64,000 nucleotides of DNA from positions 96,001 through 160,000 of the IMG/VR virus record IMGVR_UViG_3300028888_000053, one strand, 5' to 3'. This DNA is from a virus (Duplodnaviria > Caudoviricetes). A program made the translations under genes and the position numbers. The notes under the pieces were generated by a model that did no database searches, had not been told where the DNA came from, and saw only the letters and a list, made by a program, of their open reading frames with translations. Shown here in pieces: positions 1,598-45,474 of this stretch (position 1 is its first letter; every line of letters starts with the position of its first letter).

Positions 1598-3790
1598 TTA
1601 TTCATACTATCTTACTTTATCGTTATAGGGATTACCATCATGTAACTACATAATCTCAACATCAACTCTCTTCTGGTCGTTATCCATTTCACGATCTTTC
1701 CAAGTACGCTCAGTCTTAGCTTTATACCATGCTATTTCAGTGTCCATCTTGAGTTTTTGTTGTTCAAGTTGCATCTTAGCTTCATTAAGCTATTGAATTT
1801 TATTTTGAGCTTCTTGTAATTGTTTCTGAGCCTCTTTGAGCTATTGTTCCATCTATTGTCCCTATTGTGTGAGCTGCTATATTTGATTATTTTCTTCTTT
1901 CTGTTTAGCCATCGCTTTTTGAACTTTATATTTCAAATCACTTAAGCTCTTACATGTTAATGCTTCAAAAATAATATCCGGTGCCAAGGATCCAGATCTT
2001 ATAAAATCAGGTATAACAGCTTTTATCTATTCCATATCTTTCATTACGTCTGTACTAGTCGTAATGTGAATATCATAATCACTTAATGTAAAATGTTCTG
2101 GCAAAGCAGTAAAAATCCTCTAATACTTTTCACCTAAAACAATAGTTCCGGTTAATCCATTTTTATAAACAACTTTCGCTTCATTAAGTGCATCTAATAA
2201 GATTTCATTTGTGATTAAATCCATCTGTACAAAATATTGTTTTGTAACAATGAATGAATTATTAACACCTTGTTTTATATTTGTAACAGCATCTCTCTAT
2301 TCAATGCCATTAAGTCTTTCTCTAAATACTCCAGTAATTGAACTACAAGTATCTTCAATACTCTGGATTGCCATTTGAAATGCCTGAATGGTCTAACCTT
2401 TAATAGAATCATCATAACCATTAAAGATAGTATTCAATGGAGCCTATCCATTACCTACACGTCCTTCCTACGAACTATCCAAGAATGCGGTGCCAGCTTT
2501 TCTGTAAGCCATCCATTTTTGAATTCTCTCAGTTAAATCACCACCTAAGAACGACGGTAACAAACTAACATCCAAAAACTCACCAACTGTACCACTATTA
2601 GCAATAATACTATCTCTTAAGAAGAATAATACATTATATCTCATCTAAAGAGGAGCACATGCTAATACTAATGAATAAGGCTATTCTGTTCTATTTAAGA
2701 AATAAATACCATTAACACTTAATCCACAATAAGAAGGATTGTCAATACTTCTTCTTACATCCTCATCCTTTCCATGTAAAATGTAAATTGATTCTCCAAT
2801 TCTAACAGTTTTATATCTGAACATTACAAAGTCCTTATCTGTCTCCAACCATTCAACTTCGTATACAGGTATAAACTTTGCATATCTATCAAACTAGAAA
2901 TCTGTTGGATAACCAGGTACAACTTCTTGTCCAGCTAAAATACCATTCGTAGCAGGTAATCCATTGTGTGGAATGTTAACAATATAATGACTAGAATAAT
3001 CCTACATTGATACTGTCCATTCGTCTTCAATAGTTTTTAAATCCTCTTTACTTAATTCTCTACCATATTCATTTAATATTTGACTCTTAGTCATCCATTT
3101 TCTACAAACGACTCTATAAGAATCTCTAACATAAGGAGAATTAGGATTTCTATCAATAAATGTATTAAGTGGATTTAAAACTTCAATTTCAACATTATTC
3201 TTATTCGGCGTAGACTTTACTTTATAAAAACTATAACCAGTAATAAGAATATCCAATAACAAATGACGTAACTTGTTGATAATATCAGTACTTCTAGACT
3301 GCATGATATATTCAATAACATTCTAAGCAGCAATCTCATACTCAGATATAAAATTAGTATTTATATCTTCAATTAATTTATTTAATTGCTACTCTATATC
3401 ATGATCAACAATGTCTTTTCCATCCATGAAACCAAGAATGGAATTCTTTAATTTACCTTTAAGGAATTTAAAAACCTCCTCGGTAATTTTTAATTGCTTA
3501 TCTCGTTCTATGTTGGAAATAGTCCTGGAATCTTTACAAGAAACTTTAGGCAGAATAGGAGTTCCTAAATACTCACCAATTAAAGCATCAACGTGTTTCT
3601 TAATCAATGGTATAAACTCCACCTTTGTTGCATTTCCTATACCGCAATTCTCTTCTAGGTAACGGTAATCTTCCGTTCTTAATTTACCAGCATAATAATC
3701 ATAAGCCTTCTATAACTCGAGTTTAGGATATACTAATTCAGTTATCGCTTTATCAGTAAGATCCTGTAAACGTTCCTGTTCTTTAGTCAT
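1598..3790 (-). CDS. portal protein (TAG-recoded, 730 aa)
   Basis: One frame joins track ORFs 3389-3622 and 3002-3304. N-terminus has AYDYYAGK...YRYLEENCGIGNATKVEFIPLIKKHVDALIGEYL, C-terminus is a Q-rich coiled coil, and it lies downstream of terminase as in crAss-like phages. Confidence 0.85.
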
Positions 3791-4852: not shown

Positions 4853-5157
4853 TTACAACACGCGTGATTGTGAGGTTCTCTGTGATAAGGCTAATCAAAT
4901 GCGTCATATTTATAACCGGTATAAAAATTAATATCACCCAAATGACGCCATCTCATTTCCTCACGAAAATACTTTAAAAATTTGTCATCATCTAATTCAA
5001 TAGCAATATGAATTGGACGTTCATCACAATCTAAACCAAGCTATACATCCCAACCTTCAGTTTTCAAAGGTACTATCTTTAAAGGACCAATATAACATTT
5101 CTTATATTGATTAAAAATAATATCTAGGATCGCTTGTCTTAACTAATCCATATCCAT
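4849..5157 (-). CDS. hypothetical protein downstream of terminase (TAG-recoded)
   Basis: MDMD*LRQAILDIIFNQYKKCYIGPLKI...LGLDCDERPIHI...; open except for TAGs. Confidence 0.65.
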
Positions 5158-7408
5158 AGTCGTCCATATTGAAATTGTTTGTAAAATTAACTTTAACTTC
5201 TCTCTTCTTCGGAATAGCACCCCAATGTTTTACTCCATTCTCATCATAATAGAAACCAATATCACGAAAATCATTATTGGCTTCTTGCTTTACAGCTTTA
5301 GGTACAACTCCAGATAATTCTTCGTCTGCCAACATTGCCATACCACATGCTGCGACACAGTCAAACTTTCTTTTAAATTCAAAAGTGTACTAACTAAGTT
5401 GTTCGATCATTTCTTCAAACCACATATTTTCTCCATACTCTTCAATGTAGTCTGCTATTAAATCATTCTAATGATTAATAATAGAAGTTGTGGCAGGGGT
5501 ACCATATGAGTTTGTTCTTTTTTTCGTTATGTCTGGATATGTAGCACTTGGACGATGCATAAAGTATCTTAAGAATTTATTAGATCTAGCAAAAGATAGT
5601 AATGAAATACGAGTCGCCTCTAAGTTAATCTGACAATTGTAATACATAGCCAAGGCAATTGCAGTCTAAAAAGCTTGTTTCAATTTTTCTGGTCTATCCT
5701 TATACATTGCTACAAACTAAGGAGGTTTCATTCCATATGCTCTTCTATAAATAACCATACAGAACTAAGATGCATCTCTTGTTTCAGAACTAGTATCTTC
5801 TTGTCCTAAGTCAATAGAGTCAATACCGGCAACATATAATGACTATTGCATTGGTATTACTTCTTTCTAGACTTCTTCTCGTTCTCCATTCTCGTTAACA
5901 ACAAAACTCTTCTATGGAATCCATAATGGATGTTCAAGAATCTATACTTTACCAGATCTTATATTCTACCAAATAACATCTGTAATATTAGCAGAATTAA
6001 ATTCATGATCGCCACTCTTATACTAAAATTTAAACATTCCTTCATCAATGTGTGGGCATTGATGCATTGCTCTAATTCTAGTTAACTAAGTTGCTAGTAT
6101 AGCTTTATTAAACTAGTTAACACCTTCTTTAGAAAATGCTTCTTCCAAAGTATAACAATACTCAGCACAATAATCTAATAATGCTTTTGGAGAAGAAGAA
6201 CGCTGTGCTCTTTCTTTGTCGTAATATTCCTTTGCTTTTACTTCGTCACAGTATCCTCTTTCGTCAATGTAGTTTTCTTGATATACAGCTTTATAACAAG
6301 GAATAAAGAATGCAGTATACATCACAGATCCATCTTCTGTATATGTATTTTTAAATGGCAATACATCATATACTTCTGGATTAAATGAAACAACTCTTAA
6401 TCCTTCTAGCATAGCTCCTTCATCACCACCAGTACCTCCTAATGAAATCAAACCGATCTTCTAAGCACCAAGAGTTACAAGGGCTGTTGCCTTCACTAAC
6501 TAAGTAAGTAATTCCTTATTATGTCCAGCCTCTTCCATTACAAATAAATCAGTACGTTGACCACGGACCTTACTACTTCTATCTGCAACGATAGCTGTAA
6601 TCTAAGATTTCCAACCAACCTCAACTTCCTGTCCATTTACTTTCTTTAAGAAAGAAGCTCGTTTCTAATATCTAGAATTAGATACCTGTGTTAGTTTTTT
6701 AAATCCACCATCTGTATTATCATTTAAAAACGATAAAGCATCCCATACTTTCTAAATGGTAGTATCAACATAATTCTACGTAGTTGCAGACAAAATCGTA
6801 TTACTTCCACGAAATGAATTATACTAGTTAGCCATTACAGCAGCATTAATTTCACTAAAGCCAATACCACGACTTTTCATTAATGCTACATTCTTTCTTA
6901 AATACTTACATAATTCATAGTAATGGAAATATTCATATTGATATACTAAAAATTGAGGGAATACTAAAGCTCTTGAGGTACCTGCCTTTTCTACATTTGG
7001 ATTAGGTAACTAATAAAAATTTAAAAAGAAATAATGATTACCAGTAATAGTATATCCATTTACTGTCATTCCATCCCTGCAATAGACATACTACTAATGC
7101 CAAAAATCTTTAAAAGCTTTAGTATTTTTCTTTGCTAAAGTATAATGTCCATTTTTTAAGAAACCATCCCTTGCTTCTGTAAACCAAGATGGATTAAAAT
7201 CAAGTCCATGATCTTGATTGATCGGTCTATATCCAGTTATTTCATAACTAAGTGTAGTATCAAAGAATGGGATAGGATCATCTTTTTTAACATCCCATTC
7301 TCCCTTGTGTAACTATTCAACTTGTTTTTTAATCTCCTTGAATTCATTTTCTTCTTTCTATTTCATTTCAGAAAGAATCTTCAATACTTCTTCTGGTAAC
7401 TATTCCAT
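5111..7408 (-). CDS. terL: terminase large subunit (TAG-recoded, 765 aa)
   Basis: Walker A MKSRGIGFSE, Walker B DLFVMEEAG, coupling motif GGTGG, nuclease YVAGIDSIDLG...KFDCVAACGMA. Track ORFs 6113-6451, 5468-5653 and 5111-5341 share the frame. Confidence 0.95.
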
Positions 7409-14814: not shown

Positions 14815-14890
14815 TTGGGGTAGTGGGAGTCGAACCCACTTTAACACGGGGTTAGAGCCCGCTGCATGAGAACCGTAATGCTGCACCCCA
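14815..14890 (-). tRNA. amber suppressor tRNA, anticodon CUA, Gln-type acceptor stem
   Basis: TGGGGTG/TACCCCA acceptor, anticodon arm GCGGG-CT-CTA-AC-CCCGT, T arm GTGGG-TTCGACT-CCCAC; U1-A72, G2-C71, G3-C70 as in bacterial tRNA-Gln. Confidence 0.9.
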
Positions 14891-28698: not shown

Positions 28699-29112
28699 AT
28701 GAAAAAGTATTCTGAAATCAGGGAAACTAAAGAGTTCGCAGAAGCCACCACGAACAAGAAGTTCAAAAGCGTACAGAAAGGCTTTCCCGAAGGAAGCCAC
28801 AACGTGATTGTTCTCGGCAGTGACGAGGATTTTACCTTCAAGCGTGACGGTAAAGACCAAGCCGTCGGTATGGTTAAGGTTCTCGTGTTGCCACAGGACG
28901 CCACCACACTCACGGACGACACTCCTTGCGAGGTGAACCGCGTGGTTCAGGCCTCGTTGGCCAGTGCTATCGGCTGTTACAGTGACAGCGAGTGGACGAA
29001 AGCCGCTGAAGATGGCACTATCTTCCCTATCGAGGCACACCGTATGGCTCCCGCGACGGAAGACGAGTACAAGCGTGGCAAGGGTAAGATGAAGTTTACC
29101 CGCCGCGGCTAA
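28699..29112 (+). CDS. first early protein, hypothetical
   Basis: 137-aa ORF, visibly more GC-rich than the late arm, followed by a strong terminator. Confidence 0.8.
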   Translation: MKKYSEIRETKEFAEATTNKKFKSVQKGFPEGSHNVIVLGSDEDFTFKRDGKDQAVGMVKVLVLPQDATTLTDDTPCEVNRVVQASLASAIGCYSDSEWTKAAEDGTIFPIEAHRMAPATEDEYKRGKGKMKFTRRG

Positions 29113-29150
29113 AATAAGTAAGGGGCTTTCGCCCCTACTTATTTTTTTTG
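29113..29150 (+). terminator. rho-independent terminator
   Basis: aaataagtaaggggc-tttc-gcccctacttatttttttt. Confidence 0.85.
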
Positions 29151-29178
29151 TCCACTATATATATAGTGGTGTACGAGT

Positions 29179-29946
29179 ATGGGGATTACAACCATTAAAC
29201 TGATTAAGCAGGGAACTTTTTTCTATCGTGAAGACACAGGTGAACAATACTTGATGTTTCCAGAGAATTTTCATTTGAGTGATGGTGTATATTATGCCAA
29301 CATTTCTGGTGAAGAGAGATATGGTGACAAAGTGTTTCATATCTGTTGTCGATTGCAAAAGAGTTCTTTGTAAATTAAGCCCGTGAACACTAAAGTGTTG
29401 TGTAGAGTGATACTACCACGGGTAACTAGTATTAGTGTTGTTTTTAAGTGGACCCAGTACGTGAGTATAGGGTCCGCTGCTTGTTTTTTTTAAAACCTCT
29501 CACTAGTGGTTAAGTGTCGGAAAAAGATGAAAGAAGAGATAAAAGACGCAATTAAAGATCTCGCAATGTTAGTCCTGCCCATTCTGGGTTTACCAATAAT
29601 GCTTGGTCTTTATGTGCATCAAGTTTCTGAGAAGGAACCTGTAGGGCACGAAATGCCCTATTGCGAGTTGCCTGACTCTGTGACGGAGGTATGGGTGCAA
29701 ATTACAGCCTATCACTATAAAGGTCAGAGATTCAGATTTCCAAATAAGCGAAACATATATATACCAGCAGAAATGAAGATGAGAATTGTAGATAATAAAG
29801 TTGTCAATGATCACTTCAGAATGGTTGGTGATGCCAATGAACAGATATATCAATTTCGTGGCAAAAGGTTGTTTTGCTTTGGAAATAAACTCATTAAGAC
29901 TGATGATGCAGACATTCTTACGATCATGAATGAAATATCAAATTGA
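29179..29946 (+). CDS. two early hypothetical proteins (29179-29373; 29527-29946 with N-terminal TM)
   Basis: Track ORFs on the coding strand. Confidence 0.6.
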
Positions 29947-30007
29947 AGTCATTTTGCTCTCAGGTGGGCTTTGTACGCGAGTATAGAGTCCACCGTTTTC
30001 TTTTAAA

Positions 30008-30289
30008 ATGAAGACATTTTTATTGAATGCCTTCTCGTTGCAGATGGTAGACGTGCCATGCTGTGTAAAGTTTGAGGAAGTTGACGAACTTCCAGATGGA
30101 CTAACCTCTGCAATTGGTCATCAAGATACAGCTAACGTTCTTGGTGTTCCAATGAACAGGATTAATGTTCATCTCTCTCAGGGTGATATTGCCTATGTAG
30201 CTCAGCTGCAAGGTGGTAGACTTCCTGAAGGGTCAACAACCTTACCTGAAGGGTTCTCCTTCAAGTACATCAAGGTTGTAGTAGACTAG
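30008..30289 (+). CDS. DUF1874 / AcrIII-1-family viral ring nuclease (anti-type III CRISPR)
   Basis: LLNAFSLQM...SAIGHQDTA...NRINVHLSQGD...YVAQLQGGRLPEG matches the family signature including the catalytic GH. Confidence 0.85.
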   Translation: MKTFLLNAFSLQMVDVPCCVKFEEVDELPDGLTSAIGHQDTANVLGVPMNRINVHLSQGDIAYVAQLQGGRLPEGSTTLPEGFSFKYIKVVVD

Positions 30290-30404
30290 CGAGAAGACAT
30301 TGTTGGGTTCATCCTATACCCAACGCGTAGACAAAATGGGGTTGACTTGAGAGGGGTTCAAATAGAAATTCCTCACAGTACTAATCTATTCAATAAAACA
30401 AAGG

Positions 30405-31240
30405 ATGGATAAGTACATGTTAAAATTCAATGGCTGTTTGAAATTCCTTGGTAGTTTTGAAGACTGTCAACGGAAGTTGAAAGAGATATACCCTGACAGA
30501 ATGAGTCAGAGATATTGCAGGATTGAGCGCTTCGATGAGAATCAACAACCAACAATGAAACATCCTCTTCGTGGAGTATTACCAACACCACGTCGTAGTC
30601 GTAGTTTCAGCTCAGACGGAGACGTTGAATACTATGATTAATTAATATACGTGAATACCCTCGCGATGGTGGCTAATCGCTAAAAAGAGATGTATACAAT
30701 TCAAAAGCAAATCGGCAATCAGTGGCAGTATGTATTAGATATATTGACTTCTTCTTATGAGAAGGAAATCATATCGTTTATGAAGTCAATTACTACTGCT
30801 GGGGAAACTCTGCGTCTAGTAAAAGACGGTCGTGTGATATATCTTTATACGGTTATGGATACCAAACAATCCTGTGATGGGATTGGTAGTGAGTCAAAAA
30901 CTGCATTAAGAATCAATAAACGATGAAACTTCAGCTAAAATACAAGGATTACGGTACCTCAGAAATGGGGTATCCGTACCTTGAAGACGAAGTTTGGTGG
31001 GAGAAGGAAGTATCCTGCCAAGCGGAACTTGAGGTCGCCAAACAGGAACTCTACGCGTATGTACGTAAGGAGTTCTCCATTGACTGGTTGGTTGACTCTC
31101 TAGAAGAGAAATCAGAGAAGTCATACACTCTCAATCACCTTCGTTGTGAAGTGGTGAATTTTGGGAGTGTGATTGATTGTTGGGAACTTCGAAAGAGTGA
31201 ATTCATCTTCAACCAAGACGTGGTTGAAGTGTTAGAATAA
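30405..31240 (+). CDS. three early hypothetical proteins (30405-30641, 30690-30926, 30923-31240)
   Basis: Track ORFs with ATG starts, co-oriented. Confidence 0.65.
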
Positions 31241-31289
31241 GATGGTTTGTTGTTCTAGGATTGTCAGTACGTGATGTATAGACAATCCA

Positions 31290-32150
31290 CCCTATGGCCT
31301 CATGTGTAAGCGTTTCCGTCGCGAGGCTATAAGTAGGTTACATACCGAAACTAATTACACATATCAAATCCAATGTGGGTAACCCATTGGCGGCAGGCTT
31401 CTTGTCGTAGGATAAACTCGTGAGAGTATAAAGTATACCCCTTAAGAAAGGGTGTGCGTTGGAGTAATCCAATCCGAAAGAAAGCAATGATAATCAAGTG
31501 GTATCTGTAGTATCCTCGGGCAGAGGAGAACGGGTATTACGGAGGCTCTAACCAAGCTTCCTTGGGTGGTAACACCGACAATGATTAGCATTAAGTAACT
31601 CCTGAAGATTGCCAGTCTTAAAGAGTTACTAATCTGTACTGAAAGACCTATGGACAGCCAATGTCCGGTTGTGTGTGGCAACGCATCTCAGAAATGATAG
31701 GTTAGTAGTAAGTATAGAAGTAAGTAGTCGTGGCAGACGAAAGCAGAAAGGCGTTGGGATATACGTTGGTCAAAAGCCAGTAAGTTCACAAGCAGGACTA
31801 CGTCTTTCGGGTTGGTTCTTTTATTATTAGTAATAATTATTAATTTTAAAAGTACAAAAGCAAAAATGTTCTGCACTCGGGACTAACAATCCAGTTGTTC
31901 TTCTGTAATACGAAGACTATCAAAAGTACCGCAAGGAAATTGGTAGAAATGAAACGAGTAATCAATTGGTAAGAGGAGGCATCCTCTGTATCCGCAAGAG
32001 CCAAGGGTGAAAGGAGTATTTTACAAGGTTTCGAGTAGTGTTTGCAAGTTTTCTAAACTTGTCTGGATGTTGCCTACTTCTGGAGACAGGAGTGTGTTTA
32101 TTGGCGATAGTCAAGAAAATGGTAATCGGTGTTGGTCAAGACTCAGCCAC
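31290..32150 (+). ncRNA. large structured non-coding RNA (GOLLD/ROOL-like class, unassigned)
   Basis: About 860 nt with no plus-strand ORF; dense short hairpins with GNRA-like loops; two structured halves separated by an AU-rich linker at about 31815-31865. Confidence 0.6.
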
Positions 32151-32249
32151 ACGGTCAGGCTTCTCGTGAGGGAGTGATGGGTTCGAATCCCACAAGCCTA
32201 CAACAAACTTTTAAAACCTAGTCCTGTAGAGGTTAAGGCTCGAGAAAAG

Positions 32250-32995
32250 ATGAAAATGACAATTGAAGAAGTGCGTAGAGGAATGGCTGGTAGTGATTTC
32301 GACATCGATAAGAATCGATATTACGATGAAGAAGAGGAACAACATCTCTGCCAACAAAAAGAGACAGAAGATAAGTGGAGTGATAGATTTCCGAACATTA
32401 CGTTTTGGATTGTCGAACTTCAATATCGAAGTGCTGATTTACCTCCATATATATGGGCATTGTGCCGTGTATTCTTAAGTAAATCGCAAGCAATTGCGTT
32501 TGCAAAGGAATTAAAGAACAAGTACAATGACATTCGTATTCGTTGCCAGAAGAACTTGAGACAACCAAAAACTGTATACAAGGTTCTGGATGACGGAACT
32601 GTAGAAAAAATAAAGGAGGCCTGATTAGGTCTCCTTTTTTTTAAATAATTTCAAATCAAACAAAAAAAACAATGGAAAAGAAGAACAAGCAAAAATTGTT
32701 GTTCGTGGTTAGGAATCACGGAAACAGCGTGGACGTGTACAACCGTTCAATTTTGGGAGTATTCAGTACTGCTGAAAAGGCAGCTGAAGCAACAAAACGA
32801 CAGATGAAAATCGCCAAAAAGGGTGGACATGAGATCTACCCTGAGGTGAAGGTTTGTCGCCTGAACCTCGGTGGTTACATGGGTTGTTCTGCATTCTCTA
32901 TTAAAGAGATGCTTGAAGACCCTAAGGCCTTCACTAAGAAGGTAAGAGAGTGGAATACCTGGAACTGTGAAATCTTTGACAAGTTTCAGTTATGA
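32250..32995 (+). CDS. two early hypothetical proteins (32250-32624, 32672-32995)
   Basis: Track ORFs; terminator-like hairpin at 32615-32642 between them. Confidence 0.7.
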
Positions 32996-33294
32996 AGATT
33001 TCCATTCCACAACAGATGCTTCAAATTCCTCAGGAAAAAGAAGCGTTCGTGATGGGTCTCCTCAAGGCCCAAGGTATTGAATTTTATGTTGAGAAGAAAG
33101 TAAAGTATCTCAAAGAGATACCATTTTCTACTCGCGTAAAATATATCCTTCGTGAACTCCAGTTGGATCAAATTCGTGTTGTTGATTTCGTGGCTGTTAT
33201 GCCTCGAAAGAACTTCCGTAAGATTCGAATGGCTGGACCGAAGTCAGAAAAAGAGATCGAGAACTACTTAAAGCTGTTAGGCTATGAGTGGTGA
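32992..33294 (+). CDS. RNA polymerase alpha-CTD-like domain protein
   Basis: FSTRVKYILREL...VVDFV...NFRKIRMAGPKSEKEIENYL parallels the alpha-CTD pattern LSVR..N.L...DLV...LLK..NLG.KS..EI. Confidence 0.65.
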   Translation: MKISIPQQMLQIPQEKEAFVMGLLKAQGIEFYVEKKVKYLKEIPFSTRVKYILRELQLDQIRVVDFVAVMPRKNFRKIRMAGPKSEKEIENYLKLLGYEW

Positions 33295-33553: not shown

Positions 33554-35311
33554 TCAAATTGTTAATGCTAAGTTGTAACCACGTACAGTTTTATTTGCTA
33601 TTTTTTTAACAACTTGTTCAACCTTATACTCATGACATTCTTCTATTAAGGCTGCTTTTGGTTTTAATATCTGTATATTATGTCGTCTAAATGCATTAGC
33701 AAAAATTGTTTTTAAAGTAGAAGTTGCAACAAAACCTTCTTTGAAGATTTCTCTAAAGATAGTTGGTAATAGTCTTTTTTCATTTAATAACTATAACAAT
33801 TTATCTTTATTGTAATCTAAGGTTTCCATTTCTCCTGTAGTTACGTATTTACAAAGATCTTCGAACTCTGGATAATCTTCTAAAAATGATTCATCTTTAG
33901 TTCTTATGTATTCTTTAAGTAAAGTACTATAACTAACGCTTCTTGCTCTTTTTAAAGCGACTTCAAAGCTATCCCAATAGTGTTGCTTTAGTACATTAAA
34001 TTTAGAAGATCTCTTATAAGCATCTGTTATATGTAATCCATTCATATATGATTCACGTAACTTTTGTTTGTAAATTAAATATTGCTTTTTAAGCTCATTG
34101 TATTTAATTCCATCTTCTTCCATAGAAACAATGTCTGCTTCTAAGTCAAGACGCTTAGCAAGTAAAGCTAATTGCTTTTTTGTCATTTTAGCAGACATAT
34201 CAATTAATGTGTGAGCATCATCTTCTTTCTCTGCCATTTGTTCTTCAAACTCTTCTTTAGAAGGTAATATGGCATTGGTAGAGTATAAATGAATAAGTCT
34301 ATCTCTAAAGATATTTTGATGCTTTTCATTAAAGCGAATTCTACCTGCGATTTGTTCCATTGTGGTTGATACATCTACTAAAGTATATGTTTTCTTTGCA
34401 TCTGACACTACTATCATTAATCCGTTGTCAGTAAATAGATTACAACCTTGGAAACACTTTTTAGTAAAGAAATTCAATGTCTTATTTGGAGCTGAAACAG
34501 ATTCTATTTCATATCCATTTAATAAGTATCGATTATAAGATTTATCTGCACAACAAATTTTTACTAAGTCTGGATCTAATTTTAATGTATCACAGACTTG
34601 ACGAATACTCTTAACAGAATTAAAGAAAATATATAATTCTCTTACGTTGTGCTGTTTTCCATCTACTCCTTGTAAAGATAAACCATGTTCTAAAAATTGT
34701 TCAATTATCTTTGCTAAAGTACCAGTGACATTCGGAACTTTATAACGCATTGGTGTTAATTTAATGGTATTATCCCATTTTATTCTATAGTGTGGTAATT
34801 TATTTAGAAATTCTATTTCTAAAGTATCATCAATAGGAGTTGCAGATAAAAAAGTATAATGATTGTAACGTGATACAGTATTCATTAAACTTTCAATGGC
34901 TGATTGACGAAAATCCATATCTTCTAAAATAAGATGGTATTCGTCTATTAGTACTTTATATTCTAATATTTCAGAACCAAGCCATTTAGTAAGTTTTTCG
35001 AAACTATCATAAGTAACTGCAATTTTACGCATGCCAGGATTCATTTCTAGATAGTAATTCAATTCGAATTTTTTAAAGCCTTTATAACCTTTAAAAACTT
35101 CATACTTATTATTCTTATCTTCCGCAATACTATCTATTAAATCAACAAACGGACATACTATAATGTATTTACAATCACAATTGGCAGCTAAATAAGTTGC
35201 ACCAACATCGGTTTTGACTTTATTTAATACTCCATGAGGAAGTCCATGTTCAAAACCATGAATTTCGCTAACATAACGAGCACCTTTCGAATCAATTTCT
35301 CTATATTCCAT
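33554..35311 (-). CDS. SF2 helicase-like / origin-binding replication protein (585 aa with one in-frame TAG)
   Basis: Degenerate Walker A KVKTDVGAT, VLIDEYH, FLSATP, FQGCNL, EQIAGRIR; frame stays open 78 codons past the TAG at 33791 to TGA at 33554. Confidence 0.7.
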
Positions 35312-35794: not shown

Positions 35795-35868
35795 CGCGGA
35801 GTGGAGCAGTGGTAGCTCGCTTGTCTCATAAGCAAGAGGTCGTGGGTTCGAGTCCCACCCTTCCGCAA
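35795..35868 (+). tRNA. tRNA-Met(CAT), initiator-like
   Basis: CGCGGAG start with C1-A72 mismatch; anticodon loop CT-CAT-AA; GGTTCGAGTCC. Confidence 0.85.
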
Positions 35869-35872
35869 CTAT

Positions 35873-36016
35873 AGAGGAGTAGCTCAACTGATAGAGCGTA
35901 GCATTTTAAATTATACAAATAGTGTCGAAGCCAGACATCAGTACTATTGTAACAAAATATCATGTAGATGTGATAAGTTAATGCTAAGGTTATAGGTTTG
36001 AATCCTATCTCTTCAA
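35873..36016 (+). pseudogene. degenerate tRNA-Lys(TTT) with a 71-nt insertion (35907-35977) after position 34
   Basis: Exons rebuild TAGCA-TT-T|TT-AA-TGCTA; T loop TTTGAAT and D loop are degenerate; insert starts TAAA and ends GTGATAAG. Confidence 0.65.
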
Positions 36017-36020
36017 CTAT

Positions 36021-36093
36021 AGAGTAGTAGTTCAGTTGGTAGAATGCTTGGTTTGGGACCAAGTGGTCGCCCGTTCGAGTCGGGTCTACTCTA
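36021..36093 (+). tRNA. tRNA-Pro(TGG)
   Basis: CTTGG-TT-TGG-GA-CCAAG anticodon arm; AGAGTAG/CTACTCT acceptor. Confidence 0.9.
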
Positions 36094-36217
36094 CGTGTCC
36101 TATTGTTTTTTTTGTTTATTTATTATTTACTATGTTGTTAAACTTGCCTTCTACAGTCTGAGAGAGATAGTAGAAGGTTTCTTTAGAAACTATTTATTAA
36201 CCCAAAATACAAACAAA

Positions 36218-45379: not shown

Positions 45380-45452
45380 GGCTTATTAGTTTAAACGGAA
45401 AAACATTATAATCATTAGATGTAATATTTTGGTTCGAATCCAGAATAAGTCA
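45380..45452 (+). pseudogene. degenerate tRNA-like sequence
   Basis: GGCTTAT/ATAAGTC acceptor and TTTGG-TTCGAAT-CCAGA T arm; irregular anticodon arm. Confidence 0.5.
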
Positions 45453-45474
45453 CAATTAAAAAAAAATAATTATT

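Follow-up and report, generated by a model that had tools for sequence, protein, structure and literature searches.

What fills the gap that opens between two small genes in the early arm of this phage? The genome is a 212,277-bp IMG/VR virus record (IMGVR_UViG_3300028888_000053), a phage with terminase and portal genes, of which we analyzed positions 96,001 to 160,000; this 64,000-nt stretch is called the window here, and all coordinates refer to it. A first-pass annotation, made from the letters alone, had proposed that the gap holds an ornate noncoding RNA of about 860 nt, either a member of GOLLD or ROOL or a new class. GOLLD RNA reportedly goes back to Weinberg et al. 2009. The same annotation named an Infernal search of Rfam and a covariation analysis of homologs as the ways to check the proposal and a strong Rfam hit as the outcome that would remove its novelty. 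The evidence set out below makes us confident that 31387-32149 on the plus strand encodes a GOLLD RNA, some 760 nt long, which belongs to a divergent lineage and is carried by a 212-kb, TAG-recoded phage.

The gap extends from the stop of a 105-aa ORF at 31240 to the start of a plus-strand 124-aa ORF of unknown function at 32250, for which we found no relatives in IMG/VR. Neither the standard code nor a reading of TAG as Gln yields a credible ORF in the stretch between these flanking ORFs (31241-32249); the second reading was checked because the phage genome is recoded. Each plus-strand frame contains 15-25 stops, which bears out the first-pass description of an ORF-free gap in a coding arm, and the longest stop-to-stop frames span 81 codons (code 11), 110 codons (TAG as Gln), and 146 codons (TGA as Trp), all of them on the minus strand and opposed to the local direction of transcription. 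TAG recoding in the late genes of this phage lends some encouragement to the idea of a protein gene concealed on the opposite strand or by a nonstandard code, but the size and orientation of these frames, together with substitutions among relatives that keep base pairs and not codons, leave it effectively refuted. What the gap does contain is structure. The fold of 31290-31750 on the plus strand has a z score of -5.03 relative to shuffled sequences (0/100 shuffles as good), and the same region on the minus strand gives z -0.96, so that folding is strand-specific. All seven hairpins that the first-pass annotation had listed are present where it placed them, and five of them coincide with helices supported by covariation.

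When the locus is searched with Infernal against Rfam, the GOLLD model (RF02032) matches 31746-32149 end to end (model positions 1-416) with 84.8 bits and E 3.4e-22; a search of the whole genome returns the same match at E 1.3e-23 as the single copy in the 212 kb. It is the only significant Rfam match at the locus, with no match at E <= 10 to ROOL (RF03087), group I/II introns, RNase P, or tmRNA in 31100-32400. The score lies below the curated Rfam gathering cut-off of 150 bits for RF02032, which is a curation threshold and not a biological feature. With gathering thresholds applied, Rfam reports only tRNAs in the window, and GOLLD appears once E-value reporting is used; routine annotation would miss this GOLLD because its score is below the cut-off. 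A published GOLLD survey accepted cmsearch matches with E < 1e-5 (PMC12286853), a bound under which the window match falls. The proposal of a large RNA of the GOLLD or ROOL type is thus supported, on the GOLLD side, by a full-model match, by homologs, and by covariation. Judged by what the first-pass annotation had set down, the match also takes away most of the novelty.

To collect homologs, we scanned IMG/VR, JGI/ENA metagenomes, and GTDB genomes with patterns and passed the output through an nhmmer filter. About 30 align from ~31387 to 32148, covering both halves of the RNA, and their contigs are of viral, metagenome, or rumen Prevotellaceae MAG origin; L311, L340, L213, L211, L134, L072, and L136 are nearest to the window copy. 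Six homologs are on MAG contigs, five of these labeled rumen Prevotellaceae/Prevotella and one a goat-ileum Clostridia bin. No similar DNA was found by blastn in GenBank phages. Ten clade and related copies that we tested, some of them tRNA-flanked, give full-model alignments of 69-104 bits, as against 254-325 bits for nine canonical GOLLDs that this sample of IMG/VR also contains, and a sequence-only profile of the clade does not detect the canonical GOLLDs even at E <= 10. These low scores and the failure of the profile on canonical copies therefore place the lineage well apart from the Rfam seed and leave it invisible at the Rfam cut-off. RF02032 searches with lossy filters recovered only the seed genome among 141 genomes of a Prevotellaceae MAG's family and nothing among 151 genomes of a lactobacillus family. 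The literature that we searched holds no mention of GOLLD together with crAss-like, Prevotella, rumen, jumbo, or recoding. In the more distant members L083 and L077, GOLLD has the classic setting of the family and lies between a tRNA-Met and another tRNA; the env-38 GOLLD is likewise downstream of a Met-tRNA (PMC12286853). Two further features were observed in the contigs of relatives: L128 has its GOLLD at 942-1349 on the minus strand, followed by a same-strand tRNA array (tRNAs at 361-2077) and a tmRNA gene (119.7 bits), and L072 has a near-threshold type III hammerhead ribozyme match at 2074-2132 on the plus strand (43.4 bits, cut-off 48.5), ~900 nt upstream of GOLLD.

Directly upstream of its conserved 3' domain, a GOLLD is expected to have a structured, less conserved 5' domain of ~350-420 nt, and at this locus such a domain occupies 359 nt (31387-31745, plus strand), supported by nhmmer homology and by covariation in an alignment of ten sequences (A2). 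Its nhmmer homologs include L134, L072, L136, L128, L113, L311, L340, L213, and L211, among others. The domain opens with the hairpin CGGCAGG/CUUGUCG at 31391-31407, continues with ACUC-GUGA-GAGU at 31416-31427 and the spacer AUAAAG, and goes on to more hairpins; the motifs CGGGCAGAG, GAUUGCCAG, AGAAAUGAUAGG, and UGGCAG are conserved. RNAalifold assigns 65 pairs in A2, 41 of them with compensatory changes, and 95.1% of the alignment cells are paired versus 38-46% with the partners displaced by sliding. Covariation scores 0.615 (<=0.118 in controls), with 0/500 shuffles as high. Two of the listed hairpins, GGTG-GTAA-CACC and AGTAACTC...GAGTTACT, are among the supported helices. At its start, four hairpins and the AUAAAC/AUAAAG spacers match the canonical copies L048, L042, and L050 (278-321 bits) element by element: the GGCAG hairpin is followed by AUAAAC and a GNRA hairpin, then by AUAAAG and a longer hairpin, and lastly by UGCG and a second GNRA hairpin. 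The rest of the 5' domain could not be aligned by sequence to canonical copies. A candidate closing helix (31350-31357/31723-30) has 7/8 pairs in the window and every pair in L044, but other relatives do not keep it consistently.

The conserved 3' domain (31746-32149, plus strand) rests on the full RF02032 alignment and on covariation in a second alignment (A3, 14 sequences), in which 38 of 57 pairs show compensatory changes and 95.2% of the cells are paired versus 37-44% with the partners slid. Together with the homologs, the covariation analysis confirms a structured RNA. Three more of the listed hairpins, AGAGGA-GGCA-TCCTCT, CC-GCAA-GG, and CTTCTG-GAGA-CAGGAG, are covariation-supported in A3. 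The hallmarks of the family are kept throughout the domain: the UCAAAAG loop at 31770-31776, the AAAGCAAAA junction at 31857-31865, CGCAA and other GNRA loops, a large internal helix that is intact in 10/10 pairs (31875-31884/32027-32036), and a terminal hairpin that ends in CUCAGCC (32142-32148). The first-pass annotation had described two structured halves joined by an AU-rich linker. The two domains are there and the AU-rich stretch is real, but it is located inside the 3' domain, after the first hairpin of that domain, and not between the domains. This linker (~31809-31856, plus strand) aligns to unpaired, low-confidence model positions ~65-117 and varies among relatives in length and sequence. 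In the env-38 GOLLD, an internal linker (nt 497-538) is disordered and located inside the cage (PMC12286853), and the AU-rich stretch is the counterpart of this variable internal linker of GOLLD.

The large internal helix is crossed by a pseudoknot, AUCCAG (31889-31894) with CUGGAU (32053-32058), both on the plus strand and together constituting helix 4 of A3; it links the junction that follows the first strand of the large helix to the one preceding the last multi-helix block. Four of its six pairs show compensatory changes, and it is 100% paired in 14/14 A3 sequences. The Rfam consensus likewise has complementary sequences at these junctions (gugaC/Gucac), yet the model marks them as unpaired; the pseudoknot evidence is independent of the model score because RF02032 treats both junctions in this way. 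The agreement of the first 5' hairpins with canonical copies likewise does not depend on the Rfam score. The hairpin AGAGGA-GGCA-UCCUCU (31972-31987, plus strand) is a putative counterpart of GOLLD L21a, judging from its model position relative to env-38 numbering. In L21a, a self-complementary GC makes the kissing contact that closes the cage, and the GC dinucleotide in the loop of the 31972-31987 hairpin is kept in 13/14 clade members.

The ~860-nt span proposed at first pass (31290-32150) agrees with our result at its 3' end; at the 5' end, the conserved part begins near 31387. We obtained no alignment with any relative upstream of ~31387, and the first ~100 nt of the proposed span (31290-31386, plus strand) are therefore a lineage-specific leader outside the conserved GOLLD core. 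Its minimum free energy fold has two hairpins (~31296-31336 and 31371-31391), and the listed hairpin CCAATGTGG-GTAA-CCCATTGG falls within the leader. A promoter or a 5' processing site might be located in this leader; a scan upstream for sigma-70-type promoters gave nothing convincing, and a Bacteroidota-type motif was not found by eye. Ten relatives (L128, L140, L147, L192, L334, L180, L211, L213, L285, and L286) have a boxA-like GTTCTTTGAAA or GATCTTTGAAC just upstream of GOLLD, with a second boxA-like copy downstream of GOLLD in L192 and L334; neither form of the motif precedes the GOLLD of the window. A different 5' extension, TAAGYACACAWTGTTGTT...ATACTCATGGCGTRTGCGTTAAG...AACAACAGG, is common to more distant clade members (L105, L165/L044, L035, L084, L161, L113, and L168), where it is situated ~85 nt upstream of the GGYCAG core and includes a long-range helix that the window lacks.

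The minus-strand late structural genes (window 1-28371) contain 14-30 in-frame TAG codons each, including 26 in the terminase gene (5111-7408), 20 in the portal gene (1598-3790), and 15 in the last late gene, and the early ORFs around GOLLD (28699-33294, plus strand) contain none. GOLLD is part of a 5-kb island (28.4-33.3 kb) with a GC content of 37-52%, compared with 27-34% for the genome, and is accompanied there by ten small ORFs that are nearly all unannotatable. Homologs of the ten island ORFs or of the late genes were not found beside any other GOLLD locus, and helicase-related phages have no GOLLD near the helicase gene. The island may have been acquired horizontally; the GC shift, the unshared neighbors, and the GOLLD-free helicase relatives are consistent with such an origin, rather than proof of it. 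A tRNA cluster (35795-36094) lies 3.6 kb downstream of GOLLD, so that the phage location near tRNA genes, a trait of the family, is found here as well. One island ORF (30008-30289) is STIV B116-like (Pfam PF08960, E 2.6e-8), and codon 507 is the only in-frame TAG of a helicase-like gene (33554-35311). A tRNA at 14815-14890 on the minus strand, detected by Rfam at 38.7 bits and missed by ARAGORN, has the anticodon loop CUCUAAC with anticodon CUA; it is an amber suppressor and fits recoding of TAG to Gln in the late genes. Another tRNA (45380-45453, plus strand) has an ambiguous anticodon loop that ARAGORN reads as ATT (Asn), or as CTA with a 2-nt insert, and could be a second suppressor candidate.

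Two other explanations of the structured RNA deserve weighing. The locus could belong to a new class of large ornate RNA that merely resembles GOLLD, with a few common motifs and a different fold and assembly. This would accord with the sub-threshold 84.8 bits against 254-325 for canonical copies, with a clade profile that detects no sequence-level similarity to canonical GOLLDs, and with the fact that most 5'-domain motifs (CGGGCAGAG, GAUUGCCA, UGGCAG) are missing from those copies. We nevertheless consider a new class very improbable, given that all 416 positions of the model are aligned, at E 3e-22, and that the 10-bp internal helix is unbroken, that a pseudoknot outside the model is common to both groups, as are the opening four hairpins of the 5' domain, and that clade members occur in the same tRNA-flanked context; the published survey cut-off of E < 1e-5 would also admit this copy (PMC12286853).

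Alternatively, the sequence could be a decaying, nonfunctional GOLLD relic in a recently acquired GC-rich island, beside an equally decayed tRNA. The compositional contrast of the 5-kb island with the rest of the genome, the truncation of the neighboring tRNA (described below), the helicase-related phages without GOLLD nearby, and the missing boxA-like leader can all be read in this way. A relic would scarcely be expected to align to the model end to end, without truncation, with UCAAAAG, AAAGCAAAA, CGCAA, and CUCAGCC all kept, nor to combine an exceptional plus-strand fold with a sequence that fits the covarying pairs of its clade in both domains, and we give decay as little credence as we give a new class. 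The locus is a genuine, apparently intact GOLLD, and it belongs to a family known already and not to a new class.

As a GOLLD, the window copy shares with other members its size (~760-800 nt), the succession of a less conserved 5' domain and a conserved 3' domain, the variable AU-rich internal linker, the pseudoknot, the UCAAAAG, AAAGCAAAA, GNRA, and CUCAGCC elements, and a position in a phage close to tRNA genes, a tRNA-derived element coming immediately after the 3' end. It differs from canonical copies in its score and in a 5' domain that is for the most part unalignable to theirs by sequence, in its carrier (a TAG-recoded 212-kb phage, with relatives from rumen/gut Prevotellaceae material), in the lack of a boxA-like leader, and in a 3' neighbor that is a truncated and not a whole tRNA. 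ROOL (RF03087), a large ornate RNA of phages and prophages near tRNA islands, also forms an RNA-only cage (PMC12286853). The window RNA resembles it as a large ornate phage RNA near tRNAs, with a predicted cage, and differs from it in the absence of any match at E <= 10, in unrelated sequence, and in having separate 5' and 3' regions where those of ROOL are intertwined.

The truncated tRNA begins 7 nt after the 3' end of GOLLD. This minihelix of 44 nt (32157-32200, plus strand), which we read from the sequence, has an acceptor stem of 6 bp (32157-32162/32194-32199) and a canonical T arm (32177-32193) with the loop UUCGAAU, which resembles the T arms of real tRNAs in the window; only 14 nt replace the D and anticodon arms. 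It falls short of a cloverleaf, is not called by ARAGORN, and has no match to the Rfam tRNA model (RF00005) at E <= 10, and its fold energy is unremarkable (z -0.18). The minihelix is unique to this phage and was found in none of the relatives; in L014, L047, L080, L118, and L091, the element that follows GOLLD, at a distance of 9-10 nt, is a full tRNA. There is no terminator between GOLLD and the 124-aa ORF, the first strong intrinsic-terminator-like hairpin downstream (32612-32637 plus a T run, plus strand) following that ORF; ORF and hairpin together take up 32250-32645. Several other readings of this region were rejected. A split or permuted tRNA around GOLLD would call for a second acceptor-strand copy or a distant 5' half, and neither occurs in the window; an attP reading of the remnant fails since the genome is without a tyrosine integrase and the remnant has its own 5' acceptor strand; and a candidate rRNA-style leader-trailer stem (31241-31390 with 32149-32260) does not outperform shuffled sequences.

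RNase P and RNase Z cut at tRNAs in rRNA operons, and the MALAT1-mascRNA pair of mammals is a further case. The layout at this locus is similar, in that a tRNA-shaped element directly follows a long stable RNA and no terminator separates the two, and different, in that the element lacks the D and anticodon arms and that cleavage is here only proposed. With more doubt than conviction, we suggest that the truncated tRNA could be a working minimal RNase P/RNase Z handle, which would free GOLLD from a longer early transcript as whole tRNAs do in other phages. It may instead be a decaying tRNA relic without a role.

A possible course of events can be outlined. Judging from the local layout, GOLLD would be transcribed rightward with the early, standard-code genes, and its 3' end would be released by an RNase P cut at the truncated tRNA 7 nt downstream; the absence of a terminator before 32612 and the full tRNAs 9-10 nt past GOLLD in five other loci argue for such processing. 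By analogy with env-38, the RNA would then need no protein to fold into its two domains, the 5' cap and the 3' ring, and its copies would self-assemble into a closed, multimeric cage of RNA whose interior holds the AU-rich linker (PMC12286853). The env-38 cage, determined by cryo-EM, consists of 14 copies (Kretsch et al. 2025, PMC12286853). The cage-forming contacts of the family are the L20-J13/15 and L21a/L21b kissing contacts. We infer cage assembly for the window copy as well, with the putative L21a loop that keeps its GC as an indirect hint. A GOLLD would further be expected to accumulate as a stable RNA whose level rises in lytic growth. As to function, our best guess is a role in the tRNA or translation economy of the phage during infection, which is speculation.

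Few natural RNAs are known to assemble into a cage without protein, and GOLLD is among them. These results leave the understanding of what GOLLD is unchanged. They add a whole GOLLD lineage that scores below the Rfam cut-off and is missed by routine annotation, in rumen/gut Prevotellaceae material and a TAG-recoding phage; ~30 sequences that extend the 5'-domain alignment; and a pseudoknot confirmed by covariation. The truncated tRNA, in turn, suggests a simple and testable idea for how the end of GOLLD is formed. If that idea is true, GOLLD maturation would generally rely on tRNA-processing machinery, and the handle would explain the long-noted adjacency of GOLLD and tRNAs and supply structural and functional studies with a defined 3' end.
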